From IMG/VR virus record IMGVR_UViG_3300030613_000010, positions 4,353 to 68,352 of that record: a stretch of 64,000 nt of DNA. One strand, given 5' to 3'. Under the pieces are notes generated by a model, which had not been told where the DNA came from, ran no database searches, and saw nothing but the letters and a program-made list of their open reading frames with translations. Both the position numbers and the translations under genes were made by a program. The DNA is from a virus. Its lineage: Duplodnaviria > Caudoviricetes. Positions 11,002 to 16,582 of this stretch are shown here, piece by piece. Position 1 is the first letter of the stretch, and each line of letters opens with the position of its first letter.

Positions 11002-11066
11002 CTCACCCTCCTGCCTCTTCACCCGCCCCCGAACATCAGGGGCGCGTCGAGCGGCAGGAGCCGCCC
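11002..11066 (-). repeat. repeated intergenic leader element, copy B
   Basis: GGCGGCTCCTGCCGC..GACGC.CCCC..GGGGGCGGGTGA..AGGCAGGAG, closely similar to 11549-11614. Confidence 0.8.
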
Positions 11067-11296: not shown

Positions 11297-11363
11297 CGTA
11301 TCCCCTCCTGCTTCTTCCCATGCCCGCTGCGGTCAGTGGGCATGGCAGGCGGCGGGAGCCGCC
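11297..11363 (-). repeat. repeated intergenic leader element, copy C (diverged)
   Basis: GGCGGC-TCCC-GCCGCC hairpin, second hairpin CCATGCCC/GGGCATGG, then the SD. Confidence 0.65.
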
Positions 11364-11548: not shown

Positions 11549-11614
11549 CGTCCTTCTCCTGCCTGCTCACCCGCCCCCTGCCTTCAAGGGGTGCGTCAGG
11601 CGGCAGGAGCCGCC
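11549..11614 (-). repeat. repeated intergenic leader element, copy A
   Basis: GGCGGC-TCCT-GCCGCC hairpin directly at the upstream stop codon, second C/G-rich hairpin, SD. Confidence 0.8.
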
Positions 11615-12145: not shown

Positions 12146-12208
12146 CGGCCTGTCTCATCAGCAGCGAGCGGCCATTCTCGCTGGACCGCTCTTGCGAGCG
12201 GTTTCGAC
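12146..12208 (-). ncRNA. hammerhead ribozyme, type II
   Basis: GTC-GAAA-CCGCTC-GCAA-GAGCGG-TC|CAGCGAG-aatggccg-CTCGCTG-CTGATGA-GAC-a-GGCC. All core nucleotides, a 7 bp stem I, a GNRA-capped stem III, a 3 bp stem II and a loop I/3' tail GGCC pseudoknot are present. Confidence 0.92.
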
Positions 12209-12209
12209 T

Positions 12210-12422
12210 TCAACCCGTCTTTGTTGCGGCGTCTGCCCGGCACTGTTCACATCCTCTCGGCCAGAAGTAGCCGTACTCCACCGCCGCATCGTGGACATGG
12301 CCCTCGATGCCCGATGTCGTGCGCTTCCCGCAACTACGACAGACCACTACTTCAACCTTTCCACTCCTGAAGGGTCGTCCTTTGACCATCTTCACTGCTC
12401 CTTTCCTTACACCATATTTCAT
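12210..12422 (-). CDS. 70 aa Zn-binding early protein flanked by two hammerheads
   Basis: CRSC...CEQC; SD GGGAG. Confidence 0.7.
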   Translation of the reverse strand: MKYGVRKGAVKMVKGRPFRSGKVEVVVCRSCGKRTTSGIEGHVHDAAVEYGYFWPRGCEQCRADAATKTG

Positions 12423-12436
12423 CTTCTTCTCCCTTT

Positions 12437-12553
12437 GGCGTTTCGCCCTTCTGGGGCTCTTCAGCAGGGCGGGGGTGGCGGCATTCGGCCGGAACCATCT
12501 CTGGTTTTACGACTTGAGCAGTCGCGCCATCCACCCCTCTATCCCTGGACGCC
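12437..12553 (-). ncRNA. hammerhead ribozyme, type III, with a large branched insertion in stem I
   Basis: GGCGTC|CAGGG...CCCTG-CTGAAGA-GCCC-cagaa-GGGC-GAAA-CGCC. The core is complete and stems I, II and III all pair. Confidence 0.88.
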
Positions 12554-12693
12554 TCGCCCCGGTATTCCGGGACTTCCAAGCCTGCGCCTTGCGCGGCATG
12601 TCGCTTGGCCTTCTTGTGTGTGGGCTTGTCGGCTCTCCGCCTGCCTGCCCCTGCGCTTCCTTTTTCTGTTTTCCTCTCCTCTCTTACATTACT

Positions 12694-12723
12694 ATTATAC
12701 CAGAACCTTGACTCCCTGTCAAG
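12694..12723 (-). promoter_or_regulatory. consensus sigma70 promoter with CTTGAC-N5-GTCAAG operator-like palindrome
   Basis: Minus strand TTGACA (12722-12717), 17 bp, TATAAT (12699-12694); perfect palindrome at 12707-12723. Confidence 0.9.
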
Positions 12724-12813
12724 TATTTCAGGGCCGGATGTGAAAAACGAAGGAACATTGGACATGCCGTTGACCCCTTCAATATGCTACCCGGCATGTT
12801 GAAGGCTCCAGGG

Positions 12814-12844
12814 CTTGACACCGAGTCTAGGGCTGTGCTATACT
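12814..12844 (+). promoter_or_regulatory. sigma70 promoter of the replication operon
   Basis: TTGACA (12815), 18 bp, TG-n-TATACT (12839); CTTGAC-N5-GTCTAG near-palindrome. Confidence 0.75.
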
Positions 12845-13328: not shown

Positions 13329-13503
13329 GGCCGAACTTGCCCGGCGGTGCGGCTGTAGTATTTCTTATGTCAGCCTGCTCCTCCAGGGCAAAAGGACTCC
13401 TTCCCTTGCCATGAGTAGGAGATTAGCGGCGGCGCTAGGTATCGGCCTGGACGAGCTCAATGGATGGCTCGTCTCTTTGGCTCCTTCGCCCGACCGCTCA
13501 TGA
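13279..13503 (+). CDS. XRE/Cro-like helix-turn-helix regulator
   Basis: AELARRCGCSISYVSLLLQGKRTPSL...LAAALG. Confidence 0.85.
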   Translation: MAVKTLDLRAFESFGARAELARRCGCSISYVSLLLQGKRTPSLAMSRRLAAALGIGLDELNGWLVSLAPSPDRS

Positions 13504-15311
13504 TCCTCACCGATCCGCTCCAACTTCATTCCTATGTTGCCTCCGCCAGAGAACTCGGCGAATGCGCCTTCGACACAGAAACCACGGGGCTTAAGTCCTC
13601 GGAAGGAGCCCGTCTCTGTGGGTTTTCCCTTTATCACCCCAAACTCGGCGGCTTCTACGCCCCAGTAAGGCATCAAGGCCTCTTCGTTGAGAATGCCCCC
13701 GAATCCATCATCCAGGAATTGGCCCCCCTCTTCGACGGCTCCGTCCTGATCATCGGGCATAACCTCAGCTTCGACCTCCCTTTTCTTTCGGTCGAAGGGA
13801 TTGATCCCTACCGCGCCCCGGTCTGGGACACTCAATATGCGAGCTTTCTCTGGCGGAACGATTTAGACAGCTACGCTCTAAAGCCCCTGGCCATCACCCT
13901 ATTTAAGGACGAAGCTCTCCGGGCTGAAAAAGACCTACTAGACACCTGGCTGGTCGCCCACCCGAAGGCCAGCTACGACTTCGTGCCCCTGGAAGTCATC
14001 GGCCCTTACGCGGAGCGCGATGCCGAACTCGCTTGGCACTTGCGTGAGTACCTGCTCCCACGCATCCTTTCCATTGATCCCTGCTACGAAGGGCTGATCG
14101 ACGAAGAGATGCGTTGGGTAAAGCTTCTGGCTAAGATGTCTATGGAAGGATTGTTGGTTGACCTTGATCGGTTAAAAGAAATAGAACATTCTCACGAGCA
14201 ACGTTACATCGAAGTCTGCAAGGAACTATCCGAAGCCTACCGGCCCGGATTCAACCCAAATGCCCCAACCCAGGTCAAGCATCTGTGCGACTGGCTCAAA
14301 GTCCCCCTCGACGACTCCACGGAAGAAATCGAACTGGTCCTTCGCGCCGACGAATTCCCCATCCTCAACAAAGTTATCCTGGCCCGACAGCTTTCCAAGG
14401 TCCTCACCTCCTGGCTCCGACCTTATCGCCAATACGCACGGGCCGGGGGAGGAAGAGTGCATACCAGCTTTGGGTCTGCCGGGGGCCGAGCCGCTGCCGA
14501 CACTTGGGGATTCGCCCGGACGGGGCGGCTGCGGTCGAGAGACCCGAACCTCCAGGCGGTGCCAGCCTATGACGAAGATATTTATCGTGTCAAAGAAATC
14601 GTGGTGGCCCCAGAGGGTTGGAAACTGGTAAGCCTCGACTTCTCGCAAGCCGAGATACGGATAGTGGCCCACTACACCCAAGACCCGCGTCTTATTTCCG
14701 AGCTCAACGACCCAAATGGGGACGTCCATGGGGCTGTGGCAAAGGTTCTCGACATGCCACGGCGGGGGGCGAAGCGGGTAGTGTTCGGTGGCGGTATCTA
14801 CGGAGCCGGGGACATAACTCTGGCTGTCACCTTAACGCAGGAACTCAAACGACGGGTGAGTCCGGAGGAAGCTGCTGTCTGGCGGGCGACGTTCCACAGA
14901 CGATTTCCAAGGTTCCCCGACATGATGAGACGTGCGGAGAGGGCGGCAAAGCAGCGGGGCTACGTGAAGATTTGGTCGGGACAAAGATTCTGGTTCACTA
15001 ACGAAAAGTTATCCGACCCCCATAAGGCATTCAACACTCTGATCCAGGCCGGGGTTGCTTCGGTCGTCAAACGGGGTATGCTTGCGGTAGACGACTACAT
15101 TCAGGAACGCCGATTGCGGGCGCGTATTACCTTACAGATTCATGACGAAATACTGATCTTCCTCCCAGAAGCGGAACTCTGTCACATTCCTGAATTTGCC
15201 TCACTTTTAACTTCTCCCGGCCCGACGGACGGGTGGACCTGCCCACTCCGGGTAGAAGTAACAATCGGGGACCGCTGGAGCGAATTGAAAGAATGGGGAG
15301 TGGTTGCTTGA
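13500..15311 (+). CDS. family A DNA polymerase (3'-5' exonuclease plus polymerase; no 5'-3' exonuclease)
   Basis: FDTETTG, GHNLSFD, YAERDA; motif A LDFSQAEIR; motif B RRGAKRVVFGGGIYG; motif C IHDEI. Confidence 0.93.
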   Translation: MILTDPLQLHSYVASARELGECAFDTETTGLKSSEGARLCGFSLYHPKLGGFYAPVRHQGLFVENAPESIIQELAPLFDGSVLIIGHNLSFDLPFLSVEGIDPYRAPVWDTQYASFLWRNDLDSYALKPLAITLFKDEALRAEKDLLDTWLVAHPKASYDFVPLEVIGPYAERDAELAWHLREYLLPRILSIDPCYEGLIDEEMRWVKLLAKMSMEGLLVDLDRLKEIEHSHEQRYIEVCKELSEAYRPGFNPNAPTQVKHLCDWLKVPLDDSTEEIELVLRADEFPILNKVILARQLSKVLTSWLRPYRQYARAGGGRVHTSFGSAGGRAAADTWGFARTGRLRSRDPNLQAVPAYDEDIYRVKEIVVAPEGWKLVSLDFSQAEIRIVAHYTQDPRLISELNDPNGDVHGAVAKVLDMPRRGAKRVVFGGGIYGAGDITLAVTLTQELKRRVSPEEAAVWRATFHRRFPRFPDMMRRAERAAKQRGYVKIWSGQRFWFTNEKLSDPHKAFNTLIQAGVASVVKRGMLAVDDYIQERRLRARITLQIHDEILIFLPEAELCHIPEFASLLTSPGPTDGWTCPLRVEVTIGDRWSELKEWGVVA

Positions 15312-15503
15312 CCGATTTTGCTGTCGTAGTCGCCGACCCGCCTTGGGTTTATCCTCCCCCCACACGCGCCGGGGTACGGTACAGAAAAGCAGGACCGCAT
15401 CGAACGAGAATTGCCCGGTCCGTATCTTGAGTTATTCGCAAGGCGACAGCGGCCCGGATGGACCTGCTGGGGCAATGAATTAACCCCGAACGAAGGAGGG
15501 TAG
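15308..15503 (+). pseudogene. internally deleted, frameshifted MT-A70 methyltransferase remnant
   Basis: DFAVVVADPPWVY in one frame; DRIERELPGPYLELFARRQRPGWTCWGNEL in the +1 frame; most of the domain is missing relative to 17618-18157. Confidence 0.8.
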
Positions 15504-15511
15504 AGGCTTTT

Positions 15512-16582
15512 ATGGATTCAGAACCAGTTCGAATCATCATTGGGGGCCAGTACGGCTCGGAGGGCAAAGGCGCTGCGGTTGCGTATCTTACGGACGCGCA
15601 GCGCTGTCAAGCGCCCGTGGTTGTCCGAACCGGTGGGCCTCAAGCTGGCCATTCGCTCCGCTACAACGGCCAAACCTTCGCCATGCGTCAGGTCCCCGTG
15701 GCTTGGGGGAATGAAAAGGCAGACCTTTGTATTGGCCCCGGCGCACTCATCGACATAGAAGTGCTCAGGAATGAAATCGATTTCGTTGAGAAGGCCCTCT
15801 ACGGCGGTTCCGGCTCCCCTCGGAAGAACCGTCTTGTAGGGAGACTCTGGATCGATCCGAATGCCGCAATCGTGTCAGAGGAACACAAGCGCCGGGAAAG
15901 CGCCCTCGGCCTGTCCCAAAGCATCGGCTCGACAAAAGAGGGGGTCGGGGCCTGCCAGGCGGACCGGGTGATCAGGCAGGCGGAACTGGCCAAGGACTGG
16001 GCAGAGCTCCGACCGTACCTTGCCGATGTCCCAGACCTCCTCTGGGCAGAGCATAAGCGAGGTCGGCCGATCTTCGTCGAGTCCACTCAGGGATTCTTCC
16101 TCAGCCTAACGCGCAGCGGTTACTATCCGAATTGCACCTCCCGCGACATTACCCCGGCGGCCGTTCTCAACGACGCAGGCATTCCGACGACTTGGCCTCA
16201 TGAAATCATCATGGTTCTCCGCACTTACCCCATCCGCATCGCCGGGCCTTCGGGCCGGATGCCCAAAGAGATCACTTGGGAAGAGCTGGCTGAGCGAACC
16301 GGCGGGTACGTCAAGCCGGAATTGACGACGGTCACCAAGAAGACAAGAAGGGTCAGCGAGTGGGACTACGCCCTGGCCCGGACGGCTATCCGGCATTGCA
16401 CACCGACTGCGATCTGGCTGAGTTTCGCGGATTATTGGTGGCCCCACCTGGCCGGAGCGGATCGCCTGGATGACGAAGCCGAGGCACGGGTTGCCTTTCT
16501 GGAGCAAGACTTGGGGGTACCGATCAAATGGGTGAGCTTGGGATTCCAACAAGTGGTGGGGAGGCAACCCTCCATTGGGTAG
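15512..16582 (+). CDS. purZ: PurZ/PurZ0-like adenylosuccinate-synthetase homolog (2-aminoadenine pathway candidate)
   Basis: GGQYGSEGKG (Ser at the PurA catalytic Asp), GGPQAGHS, IGST..GVG, ESTQG, TSRD, RTYPIRIAG, ELTTVT...RR, LSFAD. Confidence 0.82.
   Translation: MDSEPVRIIIGGQYGSEGKGAAVAYLTDAQRCQAPVVVRTGGPQAGHSLRYNGQTFAMRQVPVAWGNEKADLCIGPGALIDIEVLRNEIDFVEKALYGGSGSPRKNRLVGRLWIDPNAAIVSEEHKRRESALGLSQSIGSTKEGVGACQADRVIRQAELAKDWAELRPYLADVPDLLWAEHKRGRPIFVESTQGFFLSLTRSGYYPNCTSRDITPAAVLNDAGIPTTWPHEIIMVLRTYPIRIAGPSGRMPKEITWEELAERTGGYVKPELTTVTKKTRRVSEWDYALARTAIRHCTPTAIWLSFADYWWPHLAGADRLDDEAEARVAFLEQDLGVPIKWVSLGFQQVVGRQPSIG

Follow-up and report, generated by a model that had tools for sequence, protein, structure and literature searches.

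A type II hammerhead ribozyme and a probable type III hammerhead flank a small orphan gene in a predicted early operon of a tailed phage

Described ribozyme arrangements and the phage locus

The closest described counterparts of the locus analysed here are the hammerhead clusters of prophages. [quoted passage not shown] The function of bacterial and phage hammerheads was still listed as unresolved in a 2019 review (PMC6765202). Two other systems share some of the elements. In E. coli, RiboJ, which consists of the type III hammerhead of sTRSV and a hairpin placed between a promoter and a ribosome-binding site, brings about a ca. 2-fold rise in transcript abundance and a 2- to 10-fold rise in protein (Clifton et al. 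2018, PMC6206723). In the Avsunviroidae and in retrozymes, double hammerhead cleavage produces a unit RNA with 5'-OH and 2',3'-cyclic phosphate ends, which can be ligated by an enzyme of the tRNA-ligase or RtcB type (PMC6765202, PMC7229834).

Our analysis concerns a stretch of 64 kb, called here the window and to which all coordinates refer unless another contig is named, from an IMG/VR viral record of 68,352 nt. The locus corresponds to the definition of a gene-flanking cluster, that is, at least two hammerheads on the same strand within one phage transcription unit and flanking a gene. As in the clusters of Perreault et al., two same-strand hammerheads of mixed types bracket a gene in one phage transcript, the type II element has a pseudoknot, and the role that can be proposed is the cutting of a polycistronic RNA into gene-length pieces. 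On the other hand, a consensus promoter is followed directly here by the first ribozyme, which lies in the 5' leader and has an unusually large branched stem I, and the genome, a free phage contig, comes from a lineage that is not otherwise related to theirs. An earlier note on this DNA had implied that the arrangement was new. Because this layout was published for phages in 2011 (PMC3088659) and is common in viral contigs, the locus is a good new example and not a new type of system; the features that are its own are the large branched stem I, the location in the leader close behind a consensus promoter, and the enclosure of a single orphan gene by two different topologies.

The order of elements in RiboJ is also that of the window, with a promoter, a discarded leader, a type III hammerhead and a ribosome-binding site, which would give the mRNA a 5'-OH and a folded ribozyme at its beginning. 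RiboJ, however, is a synthetic part with a minimal stem I, whereas the window has a natural element, for which an effect on expression is presumed. The likeness to viroids and retrozymes goes less far. In those RNAs copies of one ribozyme close the unit on either side and a rod-like fold brings its ends together, whereas the unit of the window, bounded by two different ribozymes, belongs to a DNA phage and probably codes for protein, and in the predicted folds the ends of its 364-nt product are unpaired and not juxtaposed, which places it outside the circular RNAs of that kind.

The early operon and its two ribozymes

The locus is surrounded by genes of a tailed phage, which according to Pfam and PHROG encode a family A DNA polymerase with a 3'-5' exonuclease domain, a fusion of RepB-primase and AAA helicase, a RusA resolvase and a PurZ-like adenylosuccinate synthetase. 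The DNA had no match among 50,697 GenBank phage records, and the polymerase is less than 30% identical to any GenBank phage protein. As far as sequence comparison tells, the phage is isolated in sequence space.

A sigma-70 promoter is located on the minus strand at positions 12722-12694 (TTGACA, a spacer of 17 nt, and TG-n-TATAAT), with 12 matches out of 12 in the hexamers and an extended -10 element. The transcription start is predicted, from promoter spacing only, at ca. 12687. From there the predicted transcript comprises a purine-rich 5' leader of ca. 140 nt, as read from the sequence (12687-12549), the type III ribozyme, a GGGAG Shine-Dalgarno sequence with the ATG at 12422, a 70-aa ORF, the type II ribozyme and a 91-aa ORF, after which four further small ORFs follow in the operon. 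The claim that a single small ORF, behind a consensus promoter, stands between two hammerheads is thus borne out. No terminator-like site was found on the minus strand between 9000 and 15000, and the leader had no match to any Rfam family at E values up to 10. The 91-aa ORF (12133-11858; the feature, with its upstream region, spans 12143-11858) is preceded by an AAGGAG Shine-Dalgarno sequence (12145-12140) and shows the pattern of GC content over codon positions that coding sequences usually have; it had no family match in Pfam or PHROG and no homologue in IMG/VR, and for none of the small proteins of the early operon was a Pfam or PHROG match found. A second promoter, with 11 matches out of 12, lies on the plus strand at 12815-12844 and diverges from the minus-strand one, so that the region 12694-12844 contains back-to-back near-consensus sigma-70 promoters that would drive two divergent early operons. 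The leader also contains a putative ORF of 30 codons (12599-12507, minus strand) with a weak ribosome-binding site.

The type II hammerhead occupies positions 12209-12144 of the minus strand. It was detected by the Rfam model RF02276 with 51.4 bits, the gathering threshold being 37 (E 1.2e-07), in a match over the full length of the model (1-66), and Hammerhead_II was the sole Rfam family found above gathering in the whole window. The core sequences CUGAUGA (12161-12155) and GAAA (12205-12202), the cleavage triplet GUC and the three helices are all in place, with stem II open; the cut would fall between C12184 and C12183. Stem II is formed by 3 bp between G12208-C12206 and G12154-C12152, stem III has 6 bp and a GCAA loop, and stem I has 7 bp. 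Moreover, positions U12174-C12170 of loop I can pair with the tail G12150-G12146 through four G-C pairs and one G-U pair, which constitutes the pseudoknot between loop I and the 3' tail that, with at least 4 bp, is required for fast cleavage in the type II class (PMC3088659). On its 5' side the element follows the TGA stop codon (12212-12210) of the 70-aa ORF at a distance of 1-2 nt, and on its 3' side it abuts the next ORF's Shine-Dalgarno sequence. The minimum free energy (MFE) fold of the region is the hammerhead itself with an extension of stem II; a hairpin at the stop codon that would mask the cut site was considered, and was not seen in that fold. On sequence grounds the type II element is a genuine hammerhead, for which self-cleavage is predicted.

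The type III hammerhead (12553-12437, minus strand) was found with a descriptor of our own, which was written for all three hammerhead types (I, II and III) and applied to both strands. It demands CUGANGA and GAAA without deviation, U-H where the cut falls, and uninterrupted pairing adjacent to the core. In the 64-kb window this descriptor found exactly two elements, the type II hammerhead validated by Rfam and the type III hammerhead claimed in the earlier note, which is located on the same strand 228 nt upstream. Stem III, which is open, pairs GGCG (12553-12550) with CGCC (12440-12437) and is continued by U12549-A12441 (the U16.1-A15.1 pair). C17 corresponds to C12548, in a GUC site, and the cut would fall between C12548 and C12547. 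Stem I pairs CAGGG (12547-12543) with CCCUG (12469-12465) and encloses a branched insert of 73 nt. The core is made up of CUGAAGA (12464-12458) and GAAA (12444-12441), and stem II is GCCC/GGGC with a CAGAA loop, so that stems I, II and III have 5, 4 and 4 bp, respectively. In 4000 shuffles that preserved dinucleotide composition, a loose version of the type III descriptor gave 0.012 matches per window, and a match equal to or better than the observed one appeared once (0.00025 per window). The rule of acceptance used by Perreault et al. asks for all invariant core positions and for Watson-Crick pairs 10.1-11.1, 1.1-2.1 and 15.1-16.1 (PMC3088659), and all of these are found in the element, the three pairs being G12457-C12445, C12547-G12465 and A12441-U12549. 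The presence of two hammerheads with complete cores, as the earlier note had stated, is therefore upheld, by the covariance model in one case and by the descriptor and the published rule in the other.

The search with the Rfam hammerhead models that had been suggested as a check supported the type II element (51.4 bits against a gathering value of 37) but not the type III element, for which the best RF00008 score was 13.3 bits, at 12439-12511, against a gathering value of 48.5. The type I model RF00163 matched only the enzyme half (CCCUG, CUGAAGA, stem II and GAAA; 12425-12470), as a truncated hit of 12.8 bits. The failure of RF00008 weighs little, because at gathering this model also misses all nine of the descriptor-called type III hammerheads on which it was tried, from phage contigs L033, L038, L057, L088 and L112, eight of which have ordinary short stem I loops, and the same Rfam library at gathering recognises the type II elements of L088 and L112. 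It reflects, therefore, the model and the insert of 73 nt. The element is very likely a genuine hammerhead. In practical terms, phage type III hammerheads are missed by the Rfam type III model at gathering, and this looks like a blind spot of RF00008.

No aptamer, riboswitch or ribozyme family of Rfam matched the stem I insert at E values up to 10. Pattern scans found no close kin of the type III ribozyme in viral contigs, and in metagenome contigs they gave a single match, which is an unrelated type I hammerhead. Cleavage in trans was also considered and set aside, since the substrate strand GGCGUHCAGGG is present only at the cis site; matches to it with one mismatch numbered 10 against 5.2 expected, and 10 or more were obtained in 5 of 100 shuffles, which is near chance.

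The ORF between the ribozymes (12422-12210, minus strand) would encode a protein of 70 aa with two CxxC pairs and is preceded by the GGGAG Shine-Dalgarno sequence at 12433-12429; the public gene call starts at an internal Met (ATG at 12389) and has 59 aa. Its product had no homologue in IMG/VR, was the only match to itself among 5.8 billion proteins, and had no Pfam or PHROG hit. The nearest feature clusters in the ESM Atlas contain small zinc-ribbon-like proteins, which is a weak lead only, and AlphaFold2, run on the 70-aa protein without an alignment, gave an uninformative prediction (mean pLDDT 47). The alternative of a structured non-coding RNA between the ribozymes was rejected, since the body of the ORF has no excess of RNA structure (z = -0.3), as would be expected of an mRNA. 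The GC content by codon position, however, is flat along this ORF, so that it is likely, but not certain, to code for protein.

Similar loci in viral contigs

Relatives of the phage were chosen by their polymerase, which rendered five phages with 44-47% identity. No hammerhead was found in any of these five, either with Rfam or with our descriptor, and no locus homologous to either ribozyme was detected by ORF homology, among the polymerase relatives or by pattern scans. A side observation from the comparison concerns the replication genes. The family A polymerase of the window is followed by the gene of the PurZ-like adenylosuccinate synthetase (13464-16582; phrog_1211, E 2e-65), the pairing is kept in the five nearest relatives, and in three of the contigs (L006-L008) a dGTP diphosphohydrolase-like gene (PF18909) lies directly upstream of the polymerase. 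The region looks like a candidate 2-aminoadenine (Z-genome) module.

A census of similar loci was carried out by scanning IMG/VR for the type III core together with the stem II pattern, which is matched by at least 120 contigs. As these contigs were fished with the candidate's own stem II, a type III covariance model built from them would be circular. Among the 120 matching contigs listed, the descriptor found 184 hammerheads in 114 contigs, and 37 contigs have two or more on the same strand. Adjacent same-strand pairs among the contigs listed number 68; their median spacing is 647 nt, 14 of them lie no more than 400 nt apart, and up to six hammerheads occur in a row. For practical purposes, same-strand hammerhead pairs are thus very common in the IMG/VR contigs listed. 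Long arrays of type I hammerheads are on one strand with a roughly gene-length spacing: six between 8696 and 13192 in contig L019, and five each in L062 and L117.

The earlier note had also proposed to look for the same arrangement in related phage contigs. Absent from the five polymerase relatives, it was found in two of the contigs listed, in which a type III hammerhead is followed by a type II one and each abuts a ribosome-binding site (L088:809-1420, minus strand, and L112:2500-3375, plus strand). The type II elements of these contigs scored 44.5 and 46.5 bits with Rfam, respectively. As in the window, the type III ribozyme stands before a Shine-Dalgarno sequence and an ATG, and then come small genes, the type II ribozyme and the next ribosome-binding site; the differences are that two or three small genes are bracketed and that stem I has an ordinary span of 18 nt. 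The cleavage sites are 567 nt apart in L088 and 828 nt apart in L112, with different small ORFs between them, which suggests an exchange of cargo between conserved ribozyme boundaries. A third contig, L057 (1130-1260, minus strand), resembles the window in another respect: its type III hammerhead has a GCCC/GGGC stem II, GAAAC, a short stem III followed by a Shine-Dalgarno sequence, and a stem I that is equally expanded. Stem I spans there 85 nt as a long interrupted rod, the leader has ca. 1 kb, and the GAAAC-stem III segment runs straight into the GGAGG and ATG of a gene of 98 aa. Neither the cargo genes nor the stem I inserts of L057, L088 and L112 have sequence homology to those of the window.

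Predicted processing of the early transcript and its alternatives

Hammerhead cleavage leaves a 5'-OH and a 2',3'-cyclic phosphate, and the decay of mRNA is known to depend on RNases that act in a 5'-end-dependent manner. In this locus the cleavage sites are 364 nt apart (12547 to 12184), with a single ORF and no terminator between them and one promoter for the whole, and each ribozyme abuts a Shine-Dalgarno sequence. The cleavage positions after 12548 and 12184 and the size of the product had been given correctly in the earlier note, and the 5'-OH and 2',3'-cyclic phosphate ends that it assigned follow from hammerhead chemistry. Transcription by the host RNA polymerase would start at the consensus promoter, near 12687. 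The cut of the type III ribozyme after C12548 would then remove the leader of ca. 140 nt together with its 5'-triphosphate, the leader ending in a 2',3'-cyclic phosphate, and would leave the type III scaffold as a structured 5'-OH end right before the Shine-Dalgarno sequence of the CxxC gene, in the manner of RiboJ. With the cut of the type II ribozyme after C12184, a monocistronic RNA of 364 nt would be produced that ends in the 6-bp, GCAA-capped hairpin of stem III and a 2',3'-cyclic phosphate, and the downstream polycistronic mRNA would have a 5'-OH and the stem I hairpin at its head, ca. 40 nt before the next ribosome-binding site. The outcome would be three separate RNAs, whose decay and translation would be uncoupled from each other and from the leader.

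We consider it reasonably probable that both ribozymes cut constitutively in cis in this way, separating the leader, the single-gene RNA and the downstream mRNA. Confidence in this model is supported by the prophage clusters that serve as precedent, since these were cleaved in vitro and in E. coli, by the recurrence of the type III then type II order in L088 and L112, and by a hammerhead-constrained type III fold whose energy comes close to the MFE. What the sequence of the window shows in silico is the two motifs and how rarely they arise by chance, the promoter, the order of the genes and the lack of terminators; cleavage in vivo and an effect on stability or expression are what we infer. 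The locus is, moreover, compact and easily tested, with one consensus promoter, two ribozyme topologies, one small gene and ribosome-binding sites that lie against the ribozymes.

It can also be the case, although it is unlikely, that only the type II ribozyme is active, so that a single cut is made between the first and second genes. The type III element would then be a decayed or chance look-alike, and its large stem I insert and short stem III would prevent efficient cleavage. Such an interpretation would agree with the RF00008 score, which is far below the cut-off, with the lack of a homologous locus for either ribozyme in our searches, and with the remark of Perreault et al. that some clustered hammerheads may be non-functional (PMC3088659). 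It would also agree with the folding energies. The hammerhead fold exceeds the MFE by 0.6 kcal/mol in the minimal element and by 1.2 kcal/mol in the whole leader, in which an alternative hairpin is more stable by 1.2 kcal/mol; the model predicts an accessible fold, but one with a competitor, and type III cleavage could be slow because stem III has only 4 bp and the A-U pair and because the alternative hairpin is more stable. Against it, a motif this complete is expected only 0.00025 times per window, and the element adjoins a real hammerhead and is in the matching position before a Shine-Dalgarno sequence. Furthermore, RF00008 also misses phage type III hammerheads that look acceptable, and the design with a large stem I recurs in L057.

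Constitutive cleavage by both ribozymes has also to be weighed against the idea, which we hold to be quite unlikely, that cleavage by the type III ribozyme is regulated. The gate could be a factor bound by the 73-nt domain of stem I, the competing hairpin, which would sequester strands of stems I and II, or translation of the leader ORF. A stem I of this size is indeed exceptional, since 44 of the 46 other type III matches of the descriptor in the sample listed have stem I spans of 13-20 nt, and the active and alternative folds are nearly isoenergetic. The putative leader ORF (12599-12507) extends through the point where the type III ribozyme would cut and takes in one strand of its stem III and a portion of its stem I, and a comparable coupling to translation can be imagined at the type II ribozyme, whose stem II strand lies 1-2 nt past the stop codon, where a terminating ribosome would cover it. 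However, the insert and the leader match no known aptamer or riboswitch family, the ribosome-binding site of the leader ORF is weak, and homologues in which conservation of the insert could be seen were not found. We know of no natural allosteric hammerhead; if cleavage were regulated, the 73-nt domain of stem I would make the leader ribozyme a natural regulated one.

A further proposal, in our view very unlikely, is that the ribozymes are the boundaries of a mobile single-gene cassette, similar to a moron, which travel with the gene and insulate its expression. The bracketed gene is an orphan that is absent from the related phages, which have no hammerheads, the near-identical type III and type II ribozymes of L088 and L112 enclose cargo of 567 and 828 nt, respectively, and Perreault et al. 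noted that the identities of flanked genes are not constant (PMC3088659). Nevertheless, all the small genes of the operon are orphans, and not just the bracketed one. Mobility of this kind is compatible with processing by the two ribozymes and is not opposed to it.

The suggestion of the earlier note that the excised RNA of 364 nt is circularised, as would be done by a host ligase of the RtcB type to give a stable and translatable circular mRNA, is highly improbable: the ends are those that RtcB joins by established chemistry, the Shine-Dalgarno sequence and the start and stop codons are all inside the piece, and the ligated junction would not form a cleavable hammerhead again, since stem III would be mismatched there, as the note had rightly pointed out (GCGG would face CGCC, at the cost of two of its four pairs), but no helix in the MFE or centroid folds of the product pairs its 5' and 3' ends, the two ribozymes differ in type and their ligation would restore nothing, unlike in viroids and retrozymes, RtcB, Rnl2-type and T4 Rnl1-type ligases were not found in the 68-kb contig (estimated to be 67% complete), and a search of comparable arrangements for circular or spliced products detected none (PMC3088659). 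If true, it would mean that a DNA phage makes, by ribozyme excision, a protein-coding circular RNA resistant to exonucleases and to re-cleavage.

Processing by the two hammerheads would, in any case, be confined to the beginning of the operon. The earlier note had described the locus as a processing system for the first early transcript, and as a general statement this goes too far, since ribozymes sit in only two spacers of the operon, those around the first gene, and the three next spacers (11549-11614, 11297-11363 and 11002-11066, minus strand) hold a different hairpin leader, which is repeated. In each of these, a hairpin of the form GGCGGC-UCCY-GCCGC adjoins the upstream stop codon and is followed by a second hairpin, and the Shine-Dalgarno sequence GCAGGAG is complementary to the CUCCUGC of the first hairpin. 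No Rfam ribozyme or other Rfam family was found in the three spacers at E values up to 10. A role of the GGA-rich leader as a CsrA sponge was considered and dropped, a CsrA gene being absent from the contig. Small genes of the CsrA family (PF02599) are present in the replication modules of three relatives (L006:6553-6654, L007:41-199 and L013:3353-3514).
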